Below, piece by piece: positions 16,408-34,805 of a stretch of 39,283 bases of DNA. Under the pieces are notes generated by a model. That model was not told the DNA's origin. It searched no databases and saw only the letters and a list, made by a program, of their open reading frames with translations. The stretch is taken from assembly GCA_964570745.1 (NCBI GenBank), contig CAZMZQ010000002.1:1-39283 (forward strand), written 5' to 3'. The translations under genes and the position numbers were made by a program. This stretch comes from an uncultured Anaerolineaceae bacterium (GTDB lineage Bacteria; Chloroflexota; Anaerolineae; Anaerolineales; Anaerolineaceae). Positions within the stretch are counted from its first letter, which is position 1; each line of letters starts with the position of its first letter.

Positions 16408-18888
16408 ATGGAAATCGATCCTTCTGAATTTTATTTTGGCAATACTTACGACTTAAAAAACCAGGCTATCATCCCTGATAAACTGACCTATTACAACCCA
16501 CAAGACCTTACAACGCACATGGTGATCACTGGTATGACCGGCTCGGGCAAGACAGGGATGGGGATCATCCTCCTTGAAGAGGCTGCCCTCAAGGGCATCC
16601 CTGCGATCCTGGTTGACCCTAAAGGCGACCTGACTAACCACCTCCTGCATTTTCCGGATTTCTTGCCGGGCGATTTTGAACCCTGGGTGGATGCTGACGC
16701 AGCTAAACGTGAGGGCCAGACGGTAGAGCAGGCGGCTGAAGCTGCTGCTGCTTCCTGGAAAAAGGGCACAGAACGCTCGGGTATTGATAGAACCCGTATG
16801 GAGAAGTTAGCGCAAAGTGTCGATTATGCTGTTTATACCCCTGGCTCCGATTCAGCCATCCCAATCAGCATTCTTTCTTCTCTCAAAGCACCCCAAATCA
16901 GTTGGGACGAAAATAAAGAGATGCTGCGCGAAGCGATCAGCAGTACGGTCACCGCTCTGCTTGGATTGGTCGGTTTTAAAGATATTGACCCGGTACGCTC
17001 ACGCGAACACATCTTGTTATCGAATATTTTCGAACATTCCTGGAGTGACAAAAAAGATCTCGATCTCGAAAGCCTGATTTTGCAGGTGCAAAACCCACCT
17101 TTTGAGAAACTGGGTGTTTTCCCGGTCGCCAAATTTTATCCTGAAAAAGACCGCTTTGATCTGGCAATGCTATTGAACAACTTTATTGCCGCACCCTCAT
17201 TTGAGAGTTGGCTCGAAGGTCAGCCTCTGGATATTCAGAACCTGCTCTATTCCCCGGATGGCAAACCCAGGCACAGTATCTTTTACCTCGCCCACCTGGC
17301 GGATGCAGAGCGGATGTTCTTCATCACCTTGCTTTATTCTGCCATTGAAACCTGGATGCGAACAAAATCTGGCACCAGCGACCTTCGCGCATTGGTCTAT
17401 TTTGACGAGATCGTCGGTTATTTACCGCCGGTTGCCAACCCACCCAGCAAGCCGATCATTCTACGCATGCTCAAACAAGCACGCGCTTTCGGCGTAGGTT
17501 TGGTACTTTCCACTCAAAACCCGATTGACCTGGACTATAAAGCCCTTTCCAATGCCGGCACCTGGGTTATCGGCAAACTGCAAACCGACCAGGACAAGCA
17601 GCGCCTGCTCGACGGGCTTACCAATGTTTCCGGAACTTTCGACCGCCCCTATTTCGACAACACGATCTCCTCGCTTGGAAAACGAGTATTCCTGCTTCAT
17701 AATGTCCACGCCAAAGGTCCCGAGATCTTCACTACCCGCTGGGCGATGAACTATCTGGCTGGTCCGATAACGCGCAACAAGCTGCAGGATCTCAACCGCC
17801 TGGTTGGAGCTGATGTGCGTCTAGTATCAGCCGCGCTTAATGGCTCCGGGCAATCTGTTTCAGCTGCCGATGTGGTTGGCGGAGGCAGTGCAGACCTCCC
17901 CGGGAAATCGACCCAACCGGTGTTGGGCTCGAAGGTTAATGTCTTCTATCTGCCTATCAGATTGAGCCCTGGAGATGCCTACAAGCAGGCAGCCGACCGG
18001 GGTATCGCTCCAACCACACAGCCGCTCTACCACTATCGACCAACCCTGGTTGGGCAAGCTCAGGTCTGGTTTGCAAACCGTACCTACAACGTCAATACTC
18101 AAAAAGGGATAACCGTATTGATACCGGACTTGGAAAACCGTGGACTTGTGCAGTGGCAGGATTACCAGGTTGATGAAATCCAGGCAAATGAATTTGACCG
18201 GGGTCCTTTGCCCGGCGCAACCTTTGCAGACTTGGTCTATCCCTTTACTGACGAGAAGAACGTAAGCAGCTTATCCAGCGATTTTGCTGACTGGCTATAT
18301 CGCAACTACCAGATAACGCTATATCGAAATCCGGATCTTAAACTGGTTTCAGAAGTTGACGAAAGCAAAGAAGATTTTATTGCCCGAACTCAAGTTGCGG
18401 GCAATACCAATCTTTCTGCTGGTGTCGGAGCGATTGAGGAGAAGTATGCGAAGCAAAAGAAGACGATTGAAAACAAGCTGGTCAAAGAAGAATTGGAGCT
18501 TGAAAGAGACAAACAAACTCTCAACCATCGTCGTCTTGAAGAGGCAGGTACGGGACTGCAAACAGTTGTCAGCCTGCTTGGCGGAAGAAAGAAAAGCATA
18601 AGCTCATCTCTCACCAAACGGCGTATGACTGCCACCGCAAAGGAGAATGTCGCAGAATCAGAAGTTATGATCGCACGCTATAAATCCGAACTGGCGGAAC
18701 TGGATGCGAAGATGAAGATTGAAATCGATGAATTTAAGGCCAACGCTGAAGGGAAGGCTGTTGAGCTCCAGGAGATTTTCATCAAGCCGCTTAAAAAGGA
18801 CGTGGTCGTTGAATACTTTGGTCTCGCCTGGGCACCGGTATATGCTTTCAAAGACGGAGACCGCTGGCTCGAAATAGACGCTTTTTAG
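16408..18888 (+). CDS. HerA/FtsK-superfamily P-loop ATPase (DUF853/DUF87-like) with long C-terminal extension
   Basis: Walker A GMTGSGKTG followed by ILVDPKGDL, and Walker B ALVYFDEIVGY, resemble YjgR/HerA-like proteins. The C-terminal ~350 aa include a K/E-rich coiled coil. Confidence 0.75.
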   Translation: MEIDPSEFYFGNTYDLKNQAIIPDKLTYYNPQDLTTHMVITGMTGSGKTGMGIILLEEAALKGIPAILVDPKGDLTNHLLHFPDFLPGDFEPWVDADAAKREGQTVEQAAEAAAASWKKGTERSGIDRTRMEKLAQSVDYAVYTPGSDSAIPISILSSLKAPQISWDENKEMLREAISSTVTALLGLVGFKDIDPVRSREHILLSNIFEHSWSDKKDLDLESLILQVQNPPFEKLGVFPVAKFYPEKDRFDLAMLLNNFIAAPSFESWLEGQPLDIQNLLYSPDGKPRHSIFYLAHLADAERMFFITLLYSAIETWMRTKSGTSDLRALVYFDEIVGYLPPVANPPSKPIILRMLKQARAFGVGLVLSTQNPIDLDYKALSNAGTWVIGKLQTDQDKQRLLDGLTNVSGTFDRPYFDNTISSLGKRVFLLHNVHAKGPEIFTTRWAMNYLAGPITRNKLQDLNRLVGADVRLVSAALNGSGQSVSAADVVGGGSADLPGKSTQPVLGSKVNVFYLPIRLSPGDAYKQAADRGIAPTTQPLYHYRPTLVGQAQVWFANRTYNVNTQKGITVLIPDLENRGLVQWQDYQVDEIQANEFDRGPLPGATFADLVYPFTDEKNVSSLSSDFADWLYRNYQITLYRNPDLKLVSEVDESKEDFIARTQVAGNTNLSAGVGAIEEKYAKQKKTIENKLVKEELELERDKQTLNHRRLEEAGTGLQTVVSLLGGRKKSISSSLTKRRMTATAKENVAESEVMIARYKSELAELDAKMKIEIDEFKANAEGKAVELQEIFIKPLKKDVVVEYFGLAWAPVYAFKDGDRWLEIDAF

Positions 18889-25682: not shown

Positions 25683-26999
25683 TTATTCGCCATCTGAACC
25701 AGATTGGTCAGGAACGCGTTCACCCATAAAGCGATAAACCAGGCGCAGATATTCCCGCTCATCAATCAAACCATGCTCAAGCAAGCCGGCAGCCACTTCG
25801 TGAATCTGTACGCCTGCCTGTGCCAATTCGCGATTGTCACGGGCACTGACGTCACCACCTTCAACGCTTATTTGAACATCCGGATTGATATGAGGGTCGT
25901 ATAAAGCGCGTCTTGAAACGACTACGCGCAAGATCGTTTCGACCATGGCACACAAAAAACGCTGCCGCTCTGAGAAACGCCGGTAGGTTGGGCTTCCAGC
26001 TGCTTCAGCAGTCGTCTTTGTAGACGATTCTGGCTCTGCCAGGAAATGCAGGGGCAGCCCCACCCCGGCAGCGATCATCTTTTTAATCGCCAGACCGTCG
26101 CTGGATGCGTCAAGCGCTTCCAGTTTAGGTGCCAGCACTGACCACTCTTCACTTTCATCAGTCACTAAAACCGAACCAGGCGCGGGTGGATTGGCAGCCA
26201 ATTGCAGTTGGCGGGAATAACGTTCGTTTTCGCTGCCAAAGCGTGCCTTGACTACATAGACAAAGGCATTCCGAAAGCGATTTAACCTTACCCGGTCTTC
26301 AAGCCAGGCACTGTAGCGGGAAAGCCATTTCAAAACCGGCGTCAGGTCTCCTTCACCCCACTGCGAGCCGCTTGGTCTGTTGATGGCAAAGTGAAGCATA
26401 ACTTCCGGCAAGCGATTGTGCATATCCATCTCTTCATTACGAGGGTCATATGCCTGGCAAATCAGGGGCTCGGTATTACCAGGTTGCCTGATGTGATATG
26501 CCAGCTCCTGCTCAATGTCGTTTTCCCGCGATTGAATTTGCAGCACATCAGCCGCGGGGACGATGCGCAGATAGGTCATACCGCTTTGATCGCTGCTGAG
26601 CATCAAAAACAAATTTCCGCTCAGGCAGAGCTCGTCACTAAACTGGTTGATCTTCTGATCCAACAGGTTAAGCCTGTGCTGCCAGAATTCTGTGATAAAC
26701 GCCTGGGTTGGCTTGTCTGAACAGGTTACTACCATCCCACCGCCAGCTGCATATTGGGTAGTCAGTTCAACGATTCGTCTCGCAACAGGGTTAAATCGCC
26801 AGGCATCCAGGCTGTCAAGCATGATTTTCTGCCGGTCATATACCTGGCGGTCACGCGGAAGACTGAAAGCAGGCTGCGCCCCCACTAAAAAGTTGTTTTC
26901 AGTTTCAACCTGGCTCAGTCCAAGCCGCTGATTGCTTTCCAGTTTTTCGTCAGCTAGTTGAAAAAAGGCTTGCAAGCGTTCTTTGAATGAAAAGCTCAT
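25683..26999 (-). CDS. Phage portal protein
   Basis: The 438-aa size and position between terminase and capsid fit a portal, and the general portal-like sequence character agrees (e.g. DAWRFNPVARRIVELTTQY). ATGA overlap with the lysozyme gene. Confidence 0.6.
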   Translation of the reverse strand: MSFSFKERLQAFFQLADEKLESNQRLGLSQVETENNFLVGAQPAFSLPRDRQVYDRQKIMLDSLDAWRFNPVARRIVELTTQYAAGGGMVVTCSDKPTQAFITEFWQHRLNLLDQKINQFSDELCLSGNLFLMLSSDQSGMTYLRIVPAADVLQIQSRENDIEQELAYHIRQPGNTEPLICQAYDPRNEEMDMHNRLPEVMLHFAINRPSGSQWGEGDLTPVLKWLSRYSAWLEDRVRLNRFRNAFVYVVKARFGSENERYSRQLQLAANPPAPGSVLVTDESEEWSVLAPKLEALDASSDGLAIKKMIAAGVGLPLHFLAEPESSTKTTAEAAGSPTYRRFSERQRFLCAMVETILRVVVSRRALYDPHINPDVQISVEGGDVSARDNRELAQAGVQIHEVAAGLLEHGLIDEREYLRLVYRFMGERVPDQSGSDGE

Positions 27000-27790
27000 G
27001 CAGACACTTCCTCCAAAACCATTGCGGGTTTAAGTATTTGAGCGGCACGCTCACAGGCTTTGGAATCCAAAGGACAAATTGCTCCCCCAGTTTTACCCTT
27101 GCCAAAATAAGCCCAAAGCTGCTCCAGGCTCCCGTTCCAACGGTTGTAATCCATATAGCGCCCAACGCCGCCAATGGCTGGGGCACGCTGGCTGGTTTGG
27201 TGGATCAACCACTGACGCACGCCTTTGGGCAACTGGGGAGGGCAGGGATATTCAGGGGTGAATTGAGGAGCATCGTAGCTGCGGATATATTGCGCCAACC
27301 ACCAGTCCAGACTAGGCAGGCTGGCTACATCAAGGTGTTCATTTATCCACGACGCCCGGGAATAAACAATCGGGTATCGCCCGGTGACACTAAACAGATA
27401 ACACAGGCACTGAGTGAGCATGTTCGTGATCTGAACACGGGACTTCCCCTGATCGAGTTCAAGGTCCAGCACGAGTCGGACCTGCTCCAGGTCGACATCT
27501 TTGAGAATGGTCAAAAATGCTTCCATTTGTCGGATCGGGTCTGCGGATGGATAGACCACATGGTAGGGTAAAATACACACCCCGATGCGGGACGCCTCTT
27601 CAAAAAAGCGCTGGAACATGCTGTCGCGATAGCCCCAGGAAATACCGGTGCGTATGGATACAAACCGTATTGCCGGTACGTGGGCTTGAAATTGGTCAAA
27701 ATCGGGGATTTGCCTGCCATCCCAGCTGGCATTATGCTGGGAAAGGTCGATCCCGAACGGGTAGCCCTGATTACGGGTAAAGTAAGTCAC
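26996..27790 (-). CDS. GH25 muramidase (endolysin-type lysozyme)
   Basis: GIDLSQHN catalytic-region motif, a TIM-barrel-like pattern, and a C-terminal HQTSQ..GGVGRYMDYNRWNGS resembling the GH25 WQYS..G.vDlN motif. GTG 27790 is preceded by GGAGG and overlaps the upstream TAG. Confidence 0.75.
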   Translation of the reverse strand: MTYFTRNQGYPFGIDLSQHNASWDGRQIPDFDQFQAHVPAIRFVSIRTGISWGYRDSMFQRFFEEASRIGVCILPYHVVYPSADPIRQMEAFLTILKDVDLEQVRLVLDLELDQGKSRVQITNMLTQCLCYLFSVTGRYPIVYSRASWINEHLDVASLPSLDWWLAQYIRSYDAPQFTPEYPCPPQLPKGVRQWLIHQTSQRAPAIGGVGRYMDYNRWNGSLEQLWAYFGKGKTGGAICPLDSKACERAAQILKPAMVLEEVSA

Positions 27791-28011
27791 TAAAAACCTC
27801 CATCCATTTCTTTGAGTGGGTCTGATGCTTGAATTAGTGCAGGGGTAAAGCTTGGTTTCCAATCAAGTTCGTCCAAAATTGCAGTCATGGCAGCCGAGAT
27901 GACCAGGTCATCATGCAGCAAACCGCCCATTGGATCTGGTGTGCCTTCGGGGACCCACCATTTCATACTCTTATCCGGTCCGATTCCAACCTCACAGCTG
28001 AGCGCTTGCAA
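27790..28011 (-). CDS. Detached C-terminal fragment of terminase large subunit (in frame with upstream ORF, separated by TAA)
   Basis: Contains WWVP...LLHDDLVISAAM, the last acidic nuclease motif of TerL. It has only a TTG start, no RBS, and shares the frame of 28030-29490. Confidence 0.65.
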   Translation of the reverse strand: MQALSCEVGIGPDKSMKWWVPEGTPDPMGGLLHDDLVISAAMTAILDELDWKPSFTPALIQASDPLKEMDGGF

Positions 28012-28029: not shown

Positions 28030-29490
28030 TTAAAGCTGGTCCTGTTCGTTTGCCATTTGGATCGCCAGCGGGTTCAGCGCGCCTGCCTCGGTGTGTGCAG
28101 GCTGCGATGGTCGGAAATCCTGAAATCTACCGGTATCAACTACCGCTAAAAACCCCCAACCGAGGCGGGATTTTAGCTGCTGGTTGAAGACCAGGGGAAT
28201 CACACGTTCGTCCAGTTTGTCGCGTAAAAATGAGCACACACCAGCACCAATCCCGCTGGCGTCTACGACAACCTTTTGGCAAGCCCACTGCTGTGCCAGG
28301 TGGTAGAGTCTTTGGTAGAGTGTGCTGTGACGTTCTCCCTGCCAGAGATAACGCTGTACCACCTGGTAGCGTGGTTTTCCTACGAGGTCGTCATCCAGGA
28401 GGCTCAGGTCTATCTCAACGATGGTCACCGCGGTTGAATCTCTTCCCGGGTTTTGAAGGTTGTTTACCTCCGCTGAAACAAAGCCTTCTTTCCTGGCTTG
28501 TTCATCTTCCCCCGCAATGTCAACCAGCATGGCATACTGCTTGCCCGGTTGAGGATGCTTGCAGGCAGAGTGGTTTCCCTGCATCAGGCTCAGACGTGCC
28601 GGGGTGAAAAGACCACCCGAAAAGTCGATCTCTTCGCTAAAGAATTGTGAGCGCACCATTGGATGCGAACGCCCCAGCCGGGCGATCTGTTCATCGACAA
28701 ACAAGCCATAGGCGGGCACCTCGCGCCTGACTTCTTCGGCTCCGATGCGAAAGACACGCCTGATGCCATCCCGGGCTTCAGCTTCACGGGCTGCCCTCAG
28801 CTCTCGTGCCAACAGGGTTTGCCCGGTCCAGGCAGTCCCCCAAAAAACGCGGGTTGCGTTGGTGGAGGCCGCCATCGGTGCAATTTGCTTGTCGTACTTC
28901 GAAACAGAGATATCCTGGGCTTCATCCAGAGCGAGCATCGTCGAAGCAGTCGCTCCGACAATGTTTGAACCGGGGGCAGCGGAAAGAAAGGTGAGATGAG
29001 CATTTTTAAAGCGGTAATGGTTGCCAGCACTTTTTTGCCATTGGTTGTGGGTCAGATAATTTTGCTGGAGGGCTGTCTCAAGCCGGCGCATGGCGTTCAG
29101 GCTTTGCGGTTGGTAGGTCGGTGAAAGCTTGACCATTTCCGCCCCCTGCTGCCCTAATAAGCTCATCAGGTAAACTTCCAGCTGTGCCTGGAGCATGTTT
29201 TTACCCGATTGCCTGGGAAACATGACCACAAACGAGAGCCCTTTTTGCTCCATGATCGATTTCACAATCGCCCTGGCTGCTTCAGCTTGATAACTGCGCA
29301 GATTCACACTTCCAAAGATATGACTGAAGTTATCGATGCTGCGCAGCCGGCGTAAAAATTCCACCCTGGTTTCCTTGCGTTTCAATTGATTAGTTTTGCC
29401 TGGTTCAACAGGGTTTTGACCCTGAGGTATCGATAAGAAAAGGCGGGTTGGTTGACAGAGGTTAGTCTGTTTGATCATGCTTAATTCCAT
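28030..29490 (-). CDS. Terminase large subunit (truncated by in-frame TAA at 28030-28032)
   Basis: Walker A-like FPRQSGKN, Walker B MLALDEAQDI, nuclease motifs MLVDIAGEDE and VVVDASGIGAGV. Start chosen at ATG 29490 after GGAGGAG. Confidence 0.85.
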   Translation of the reverse strand: MELSMIKQTNLCQPTRLFLSIPQGQNPVEPGKTNQLKRKETRVEFLRRLRSIDNFSHIFGSVNLRSYQAEAARAIVKSIMEQKGLSFVVMFPRQSGKNMLQAQLEVYLMSLLGQQGAEMVKLSPTYQPQSLNAMRRLETALQQNYLTHNQWQKSAGNHYRFKNAHLTFLSAAPGSNIVGATASTMLALDEAQDISVSKYDKQIAPMAASTNATRVFWGTAWTGQTLLARELRAAREAEARDGIRRVFRIGAEEVRREVPAYGLFVDEQIARLGRSHPMVRSQFFSEEIDFSGGLFTPARLSLMQGNHSACKHPQPGKQYAMLVDIAGEDEQARKEGFVSAEVNNLQNPGRDSTAVTIVEIDLSLLDDDLVGKPRYQVVQRYLWQGERHSTLYQRLYHLAQQWACQKVVVDASGIGAGVCSFLRDKLDERVIPLVFNQQLKSRLGWGFLAVVDTGRFQDFRPSQPAHTEAGALNPLAIQMANEQDQL

Positions 29491-29941
29491 AGCTCTCCTC
29501 CACATCTTCCAGAAAAATACTGATTGCTTCCAGCAGTTCACCAGAGACATTTTGAATGGTGTCACCGGTCAGTCCGGCATGAACGCGCATCATGTTTGCC
29601 AACCGGCTGCAGGTTAAACCCAGTAGGTCCACCGTTTTGGCGAGATTTGCCGGATATTCTTTTTCTCCGCCTTCATCAGCAGCATTTGCGAATTGTTTCA
29701 ATACTTTACGTATCAGCTCGATTTCTTCAGCCAGTCCGAGTTTTATGGATTCGGAGAGTTGCAGCCTTTCTGCACTGGTCAAACCGCAATCGCCGTATCC
29801 CAAAATTTCGTAACGGGCATCAATCAGCGATTCCCGTTCCTCAAGCGCAGCAGCGACCTTCACACCGCTGCCCGCCTTTGAAGGGCGGGCAGGGTGGAGG
29901 ACCTGCGACTGTGCAATTAAAGTGGGGTTTTTTTGTGGCAT
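29462..29941 (-). CDS. Hypothetical protein at the position of a small terminase subunit
   Basis: First gene of the operon, 159 aa, GAGGAG RBS, overlaps the TerL start. Function is inferred from position only. Confidence 0.4.
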   Translation of the reverse strand: MPQKNPTLIAQSQVLHPARPSKAGSGVKVAAALEERESLIDARYEILGYGDCGLTSAERLQLSESIKLGLAEEIELIRKVLKQFANAADEGGEKEYPANLAKTVDLLGLTCSRLANMMRVHAGLTGDTIQNVSGELLEAISIFLEDVEESYGIKHDQTD

Positions 29942-29960
29942 CGTTCGCTTCTCCTCATTT

Positions 29961-29978
29961 TTAGAACGTTTGTTCTAA
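29961..29978. promoter_or_regulatory. Putative LexA (SOS/Cheo-type) operator TTAGAAC-GTTT-GTTCTAA
   Basis: Perfect 7+7 inverted repeat containing AGAAC-N4-GTTCT. It lies 20-37 nt upstream of the operon's first ATG, between a -10-like TACACT (29988-29993, minus strand) and the RBS. Confidence 0.6.
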
Positions 29979-30109
29979 TCAAGGATAAGTGTAGCGCATT
30001 TTTTAAAAAAGAAAAGAGGGGAAAACACGAAAAAGAGGGGGTAAAAAAGTGGAAAAATGGTAATTTTGTTGTGGTAACATTATCAATATTGATCATTACC
30101 GGAGGTTAG

Positions 30110-34317: not shown

Positions 34318-34346
34318 TTGACAAATGGACTTCCAATAACGATAAT
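34318..34346 (+). promoter_or_regulatory. Near-consensus sigma-70 promoter (TTGACA-17-GATAAT)
   Basis: TTGACA at 34318-34323, exact 17-nt spacer, GATAAT at 34341-34346. It sits 30 nt upstream of GTG 34377, which has an AGGAAGG RBS. Confidence 0.7.
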
Positions 34347-34376
34347 AGATCATATGTTCTATATCAGGAAGGTGAA

Positions 34377-34805
34377 GTGACCCAGGTTTTTGTTTTTAAT
34401 GAGTCTGGAGCGGTTCAGATGCTCGATTTTGCAGCCCGCCCGGAAGAAATCACCCGCCAGATCAATGCCGGTGATTGGCAAGCCTATCTTGGCTATGATC
34501 AGGCACGCGAAAACTCCTGGCAAGCGCTGCGGGTGGGAAAAATTGTGATTGTGTATCCCCCGCCATCTCCCGAAGACGCTCCTGTAATTTCTCTGCATCC
34601 AAAAGAATTGCAGGTATTACAAGGGTTGGGCTCTGGATTAAACCTGATTCAGATTGCTTACCGACATCAAGTCACGGTCAAAACGGTCCAAAACTGCCTT
34701 TATCGAATTCAAATTAAGTTTAACGCCCATACCCGGGAGGAGTTGGTCGCCAAAGCAACCGCCTTAGAATACATCAAGCCAGATTTGGACAGCATTTTCG
34801 ATTGA
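34377..34805 (+). CDS. LuxR/GerE-type HTH transcriptional regulator (solo, no receiver)
   Basis: The C-terminal LHPKELQVLQGLGSGLNLIQIAYRHQVTVKTVQNCLYRIQIKF matches the GerE HTH pattern. The N-terminal 75 aa are unassigned. Confidence 0.75.
   Translation: MTQVFVFNESGAVQMLDFAARPEEITRQINAGDWQAYLGYDQARENSWQALRVGKIVIVYPPPSPEDAPVISLHPKELQVLQGLGSGLNLIQIAYRHQVTVKTVQNCLYRIQIKFNAHTREELVAKATALEYIKPDLDSIFD

Follow-up and report, generated by a model that had tools for sequence, protein, structure and literature searches.

What acts on the palindrome that stands directly upstream of a phage-like operon in an uncultured Anaerolineaceae bacterium? The palindrome, here called operator 1, lies in a stretch of 39,283 nucleotides (nt) (assembly GCA_964570745.1, contig CAZMZQ010000002.1, positions 1 to 39,283 of the forward strand; the window, throughout), and an earlier note made from the letters of this stretch had proposed it as a binding site for LexA, which represses the cell's SOS (DNA-damage) response. 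Our analysis favors this proposal: we place a probability of about 0.78 on operator 1 being the operator through which the host LexA silences a domesticated, phage-derived particle-and-lysis operon.

We examined the palindrome itself and its expectation by chance. On the plus strand, positions 29961-29978 read TTAGAACGTTTGTTCTAA, an inverted repeat whose two 7-nt arms match perfectly across a 4-nt spacer, and the sequence and coordinates given in the earlier note proved exact. The LexA-type core that the note had named was equally present, with GAAC-N4-GTTC matched perfectly at 29964-29975 inside arms that extend to TTAGAAC/GTTCTAA, the inverted-repeat form of a LexA operator. By itself the palindrome proves nothing, since its core is expected 0.59 times in the window by chance; it was found once, at least one copy appeared in 42 of 100 shuffles, and the bare 8-base core alone is not significant. 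Any 7+7 palindrome with a 4-nt loop is expected ~2.4 times per 39 kb (our own arithmetic). The extended 16-mer TAGAAC-N4-GTTCTA, allowing at most one mismatch, was found twice against 0.05 expected (0 of 100 shuffles reached 2), and its occurrence is beyond chance. The second of these 16-mers, operator 2, qualifies the claim that the window holds no other full GAAC-N4-GTTC, which stood for perfect matches but overlooked this conserved one-mismatch site at 34346-34361. Operators of the Rex (TTGTGAA-N4-TTCACAA), CIRCE, Fur and CRP/FNR types do not match TAGAAC-N4-GTTCTA. As we read the data, what decides for a functional site is that dozens of species have kept it at an unchanged position.

On the minus (coding) strand of the operon, the order of elements is TACACT (29993-29988), 10 nt, TTAGAACAAACGTTCTAA (29978-29961), 4 nt, GAGGAG (29956-29951), 9 nt and ATG (29941). 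Operator 1 is thereby placed next to core promoter elements, in the position of a repressor between a conserved -10-like element and the ribosome-binding site (RBS) of the first operon gene (gene 1), and both the anatomy of the window and the alignments of its relatives agree with the placement that had been suggested. These relatives were 76 species-representative genomes with a homologue of the operon's terminase (82-43% identity), whose loci total 1.2 Mb and are centered on the element. Their labels read Anaerolineaceae, Anaerolineales or Chloroflexota, except for one record labelled Syntrophobacterales (L034), and they include the isolate Leptolinea tardivitalis, with the operon site TATAGAACATATATTCCATT at L043:9215.

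A perfect GAAC-N4-GTTC was found 32-35 nt before the start of the gene-1 homologue in ~35 of the 40 closest loci. Gene-1 homologues lay downstream of the operator in 36 loci (36-74% identity), and the operator was kept although the gene-1 protein was only ~40% identical. Anchored alignments contained three invariant blocks, GCTA[A/C]ACT, TAGAAC and (G)TTCTA. Within the -10-like element, the columns G, C, T, A, A, C and T showed no variation across 34 loci, and the arms TAGAAC and GTTCTA were likewise invariant in the 34 close loci, with 21 different values of the spacer between them. We then built a weight matrix from the perfect sites of close relatives. Above 14 bits it gave 83 matches in the 1.2 Mb, nearly all at the operon promoter or at the gene for a LuxR-type regulator, and above 12 bits it recovered the operon-promoter site in the window and in 63 relatives, including some with terminase identities of 50-55%. 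TAGAAC-N4-GTTCTA, exact or 1-2 bases off, thus occupies the same position of the orthologous promoter in 63/76 relatives. Together, these alignments make operator 1 a strong phylogenetic footprint of a putative protein-binding site and indicate that strong purifying selection acts on its sequence and not on an RNA helix. In the distant relative L071, an extra operator-like site (AGTAGAACATACGTGCTATA, L071:18399-18418) was seen after a TTGACA and before a 674-amino-acid (aa) gene ~8 kb downstream of the terminase, which suggests a second regulated promoter within that version of the element.

A simple scan of the operon promoter found no recognizable canonical -35. Since a conserved -10 is present without a recognizable -35, the promoter may need an activator. 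In relatives L004-L040, TTTTGAC(C/A) is conserved as a block that lies upstream of the -10-like element by ~25 nt (at ~30015-30030 in window terms), and TTTTCCCC takes the place of this block in the window, L001, L002, L005 and L006. At ~25 nt the block is too distant from the -10 for a normal -35, and it may be an activator site.

Operator 2 stands at a second promoter. Its first base is the last base of a TTGACA-17-GATAAT promoter and its end lies 16 nt before the start of a gene for a 142-aa LuxR-type regulator, whose product has NCBIfam and PDB matches to the DNA-binding domains of FixJ, DevR and DesR. An orthologous site was found in 17 species, 14-18 nt upstream of the orthologous gene and often as a perfect GAAC-N4-GTTC. 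In 17 loci this gene was found upstream of the operon, at a distance of 4-8 kb, and 4.4 kb separate the two sites in the window. The operon site is also kept in the distant loci and in L032, L035 and L036, where no LuxR-type gene was found within 10 kb, a pattern that fits a global regulator. A single-sequence AlphaFold model of the 142-aa regulator was unusable (predicted local distance difference test score, pLDDT, of 45). The LuxR-type protein may take part in regulating the operon.

In Gram-positive bacteria generally, B. subtilis among them, the LexA box is GAAC-N4-GTTC (PMC3323433, PMC4234289). Using tblastn with the LexA proteins of B. subtilis and E. coli and the RecA of E. coli as queries, we found neither lexA nor recA in the window or in the 76 loci. 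Metagenomes were scanned with a pattern in which the operator preceded a motif back-translated from the start of LexA (G-[YF]-P-P-x-x-R-[DE]); the scan was anchored on the LexA N-terminus because an unanchored motif scan of IMG/VR had given unrelated contigs among the matches listed. The anchored scan yielded 37 loci, all of them encoding genuine LexA of ~210 aa, where ~1 chance match was expected by our own rough estimate. In the promoters of these loci TAGAAC-N4-GTTCTA comes directly after TTGACA-17-TAnnAT, and a second box is present in several of them. One box lies between the -35 and the -10 and one after the -10 in the two-box promoters L204, L207, L222, L227, L230 and L231. In L234 and L244, both deep-sea sediment contigs, a unit of ~30 nt (GTCGGGGCAGAAAGGGCTGCCTAATAAT) was observed in tandem copies ~90-200 nt upstream of lexA. 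Relatives of the 37-locus LexA proteins are labelled Dehalococcoidia bacterium or Chloroflexota bacterium, and the Dehalococcoides LexA was reportedly found by Fernandez de Henestrosa et al. (J Bacteriol 2002) to bind a GAAC-N4-GTTC motif.

As a check independent of the motif, we collected lexA promoters by protein homology from a Chloroflexota LexA family of 212/213 aa. All of the distinct promoters (8/8) carry TAGAAC-N4-GTTCG, with the box 3-8 nt after the -10 (records JAUWBG01, DAOWGO01, DAOWLB01, SDBS01 [Loki's Castle sediment metagenome], JAZHCI01, JBHPAR01, JBHOVF01 and ENA/Logan contigs). The accessions of the eight LexA records matched none of the 76 Anaerolineae assemblies, and a comparison of shared genes between the lexA loci and the Anaerolineae loci gave nothing useful for class placement. 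The operator matches the phylum lexA box at 12/12 specified positions and in promoter geometry. Since the same extended half-site and geometry are found in the lexA promoters of the phylum, a LexA with that specificity would bind both sites in the window. The earlier description of the site as a LexA box of the Chloroflexi type holds up: the host belongs to the Chloroflexota (Anaerolineaceae), and Chloroflexota lexA genes, including those labelled Dehalococcoidia, carry TAGAAC-N4-GTTC(T/G) after the -10. Our literature search found no paper on LexA in Anaerolineae.

Several observations weigh against LexA as the binding protein. The motif was part of the pattern by which the 37 lexA loci were retrieved, so that its presence in them is given in advance, and the LexA families are placed only to the phylum Chloroflexota or to Dehalococcoidia, with the step to Anaerolineae taken at the level of the phylum. 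Many distant relatives have a degenerate right arm (GTGCTA, ATTCTA) or no site. IMG/VR holds 35 contigs with terminase relatives (L250-L284), listed as viral, of which the two closest keep the operator, while most of those at 50-57% identity are without a high-scoring site; some of the distant contigs may be true phages related to the element's ancestor. Finally, in the 1.2 Mb of Anaerolineae DNA, an element-centered sample, the motif occurs only at the element and the LuxR-type gene.

This last distribution, essentially the operon plus a regulator gene, is the pattern of an autoregulated local regulon, and would be expected of a dedicated regulator other than LexA, the main rival reading. The likeliest such regulator is the 142-aa LuxR/NarL-type protein, which would bind the 16-bp repeat as a dimer and repress its own promoter and the operon, the resemblance to a LexA box being coincidental or reflecting competition with LexA. 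Dimers of the NarL/FixJ type bind inverted repeats of similar size, and 17 species show synteny between the operon and the gene for this regulator. There is also a precedent in phage GIL01, in which element-encoded proteins use LexA-like boxes (PMC6182141). We nevertheless consider a dedicated regulator unlikely. The 12/12 identity with the phylum lexA box extends to its geometry, and a LexA of that specificity would bind regardless; the operon site persists in those loci, near and distant, that have no regulator gene within 10 kb; and the proximity of the two genes may reflect a conserved host block (PNPOx-YgjP-MFS-regulator-MGDG synthase) rather than a partnership.

The inverted repeat could instead act as RNA, either as a 5'-terminal stem-loop that stabilizes the operon mRNA or, with flanking bases, by masking the RBS. 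The 56-nt leader of the window folds to -11.1 kcal/mol (z = -2.97), with UCCUUG paired to the Shine-Dalgarno region around the palindrome hairpin, and RNAalifold on 34 loci retained the hairpin and an outer YGCU/AGCG helix. Yet the changes among relatives do not follow this fold. Over 64 sites, the six core pairs showed 33 one-sided changes, 3 of them still pairing, and 4 two-sided changes, 1 of them pairing, and the RNAalifold energy of -3.86 kcal/mol included a covariation term of only -0.46. Masking of the Shine-Dalgarno sequence was predicted in just 13/35 relatives, and at the regulator and lexA genes the palindrome comes directly after the -10, where much of it would fall at or before the transcription start. 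Judged by these substitutions, selection is keeping base identity and not pairing; we reject an RNA hairpin function on this ground and consider it very improbable. As regards the outer helix, AGCG between RBS and start codon (window 29946-29949) can pair with the YGCU overlapping the -10-like element (29994-29997), the GCG that follows the Shine-Dalgarno sequence does not vary among 34 loci, and covariation is absent from the helix as drawn by RNAalifold.

A functionless chance occurrence, in line with the 0.59 bare cores expected per window, is refuted by the conservation of the site (fixed arms and a free spacer at one promoter position in dozens of species); the two 16-mers found against 0.05 expected also speak against it, and its probability is negligible.

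Silencing by LexA, the reading we prefer, would proceed as follows. In an undamaged cell, a LexA dimer would occupy TAGAAC-N4-GTTCTA, 10 nt downstream of the -10 and over the region of the transcription start, and so block RNA polymerase, and the second LexA box would impose the same block on the promoter of the neighboring LuxR-type regulator. DNA damage would activate RecA, LexA would cleave itself, and both promoters would open. The derepressed cell would then make terminase, portal, capsid and accessory proteins along with the holin-like protein and the GH25 lysozyme, leading to lysis. If the LuxR-type protein served as a co-activator, the arrangement would form a coherent feed-forward gate by which the lethal operon would be spared firing on a brief loss of LexA, although this is speculation. 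We infer that expression of the operon is damage-inducible, and these cells probably form virus-like particles and lyse upon DNA damage.

The operon runs on the minus strand from 29941 to 19912 (~10 kb) with its genes tightly packed (Table 1).

Table 1. Positions of the two operators, their promoters and the associated genes in the window.
Feature	Position	Strand	Remarks
Operator 1 TTAGAAC-GTTT-GTTCTAA	29961..29978	.	LexA-box-type palindrome; TAGAAC-N4-GTTCTA core at 29962-29977
-10-like hexamer TACACT	29988..29993	-	conserved form GCTA[A/C]ACT; TG before the hexamer (extended -10) in many relatives
Ribosome-binding site GAGGAG, gene 1	29951..29956	-	
Operator 2 TAGATCATATGTTCTA	34346..34361	.	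one mismatch to TAGAAC-N4-GTTCTA; absent from the earlier note
Sigma-70-type promoter TTGACA-17-GATAAT of the LuxR-type gene	34318..34346	+	11/12 consensus matches
142-aa regulator	34377..34805	+	C-terminal LuxR/FixJ/NarL-type (GerE) helix-turn-helix (HTH), without a receiver domain; Pfam GerE 3.2e-8
Gene 1, 159 aa	29462..29941	-	no family match; position suggests small terminase subunit or other early structural gene
Large terminase subunit	28030..29565	-	PHROG terminase matches; 30% identity to Bacillus phage vB_BboS-125 terminase
73-aa open reading frame (ORF)	27790..28011	-	conserved, no family match; putative holin, from its place before the lysozyme gene
GH25 lysozyme (endolysin)	26996..27862	-	Pfam Glyco_hydro_25 1.4e-17; PHROG endolysin
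Portal protein	25683..26999	-	phrog_10963 2.4e-32
Prohead protease / major capsid protein fusion, 704 aa	23651..25765	-	Pfam Phage_capsid_4 6.5e-25; PHROG and NCBIfam protease-capsid fusion families
Three conserved genes without assigned function, 156, 443 and 525 aa	19912..23253	-	last with a choice-of-anchor R domain

The operon had been described as phage-like and lacking a phage repressor, and both parts of this description are supported: terminase, GH25 endolysin, portal and protease/capsid genes are present, and family searches of the cluster proteins found no integrase, no replication gene and no CI/Cro-type repressor. Head, packaging and lysis genes without genes for integration, replication or repression are the gene content of a gene transfer agent (GTA). 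For the 156-, 443- and 525-aa proteins, roles in head completion, in the tail or in receptor binding are presumed. Within the cluster, matches to promoters and terminators were no more frequent than expected by chance. The listed GTG start of the terminase (29565) creates a 104-nt overlap with gene 1 (29462-29565), and tblastn matches of relatives to the terminase mostly start inside the listed ORF, at residues 20 to 80. Since these matches begin well inside the ORF, the true start is probably further downstream than the listed GTG. The flanks consist of housekeeping genes, with DegV downstream and a PNPOx-like protein, a YgjP-like peptidase and an MFS transporter upstream. Beyond DegV, an 826-aa HerA/FtsK-like ATPase (window 16408-18888) has weak matches to the archaeal DNA-import proteins CedB and CedD, and it is conserved at the element in L001, L002, L005 and L006 only.

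We compared the element with its host neighborhood. Across L001-L041 the whole operon is syntenic along with the upstream host block (PNPOx, YgjP, two unknowns, MFS, LuxR-type gene and MGDG synthase). The capsid has a median identity of 77%, versus 74.5% for the flanking MFS gene, and the two are correlated (r = 0.90 over 18 species, the points not being phylogenetically independent); conservation of capsid and terminase equals that of the host neighbors. The element thus shows a fixed locus, vertical inheritance and purifying selection at the family level only, the flanks being different in more distant loci. Because of this synteny, the co-divergence with the host and the lack of integration, replication and repressor genes, the data point to long vertical inheritance of a domesticated, GTA-like element. 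A complete prophage of the GIL01 kind does not fit, as there are no replication or integration genes in the 10-kb cluster or its flanks and the species share one chromosomal context. An SOS-induced tailocin or bacteriocin does not fit either, given that the cluster has capsid, portal and terminase genes and that these are its best-conserved ones. A literature search found no report of a GTA-like element in Anaerolineae or Chloroflexi, and this GTA-like, vertically inherited element appears undescribed. The full proposal, that it is an undescribed GTA-like element of Anaerolineaceae, and more loosely of Anaerolineales, tied to the SOS response both through a LexA box and through a LexA-controlled LuxR-type regulator, is a tentative one that we put forward as a possibility rather than as the expected outcome.

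LexA boxes before phage-derived killing or particle genes are already known (colicins, GIL01, pBS32), so the operator is of an ordinary kind with unusually good support from conservation. Less ordinary is the cluster under its control, a compact set of capsid, terminase, portal and lysis genes at one chromosomal site in dozens of Anaerolineaceae species. Anaerolineae are among the most abundant bacteria of anaerobic digesters and sediments, and few have been cultured. If the full proposal is true, DNA damage would cause a fraction of these bacteria of digesters and sediments to lyse, with release of particles filled with DNA, and the element would be the first GTA-like system in Chloroflexota, with direct LexA control. 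Such a damage-triggered system of lysis and particles would matter for gene flow, for crashes of reactor populations and for the reading of 'viral' contigs from these habitats, since the element is already listed as viral in IMG/VR. The consensus TAGAAC-N4-GTTC(T/G)A directly after the -10 could also serve as a practical predictor of SOS regulons in Chloroflexota.

Among known systems, the closest match for the site itself is the 'Cheo box' of the Gram-positive and Chloroflexi LexA (DinR), which has the same core palindrome with an A/T-rich 4-nt spacer, at or just downstream of the -10. The two differ in their flanks, which are C-G in the B. subtilis consensus (CGAAC...GTTCG) and T-A here (TAGAAC...GTTCTA), and in the target, which here is a capsid and lysis operon, with predicted LexA binding, instead of a repair gene. 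For the controlled cluster, the alphaproteobacterial GTAs offer a parallel. LexA and the SOS response are involved in the control of RcGTA and its relatives (PMC6473078, PMC6363796, PMC5721377). Like the element described here, these GTAs are small phage-derived clusters that cover head, packaging and lysis but hold no genes for integration, replication or repression; they are inherited vertically across a clade and regulated by the host, as is predicted for the element. LexA acts on RcGTA indirectly, however, the direct controllers being CtrA and GafA. The GTA-like element of Anaerolineaceae has a LexA-type box directly in its promoter, belongs to Chloroflexota and encodes unrelated proteins.

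The temperate Bacillus thuringiensis phage GIL01 has no CI-type repressor and is silenced by the host LexA, with particles triggered by SOS (PMC4551915, PMC6182141). In place of a phage repressor, GIL01 has boxes for the host LexA in an element promoter, and the present element has predicted ones. GIL01 is, however, a complete, self-replicating linear prophage with a co-repressor (gp7) and a LexA-like activator (gp6), whereas the element here lacks genes for replication or maintenance, keeps to one fixed locus of the chromosome and diverges along with its host. On the B. subtilis plasmid pBS32, LexA represses sigN (zpdN) through a box with GAAC arms, and induction by damage leads to expression of element genes and to cell death (PMC6751061). 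This arrangement parallels operator 2 before the LuxR-type (GerE-family HTH) regulator. SigN is a sigma factor encoded by the plasmid, whereas the counterpart in Anaerolineaceae is a 142-aa chromosomal HTH protein, next to a structural operon that has a LexA-type box of its own.

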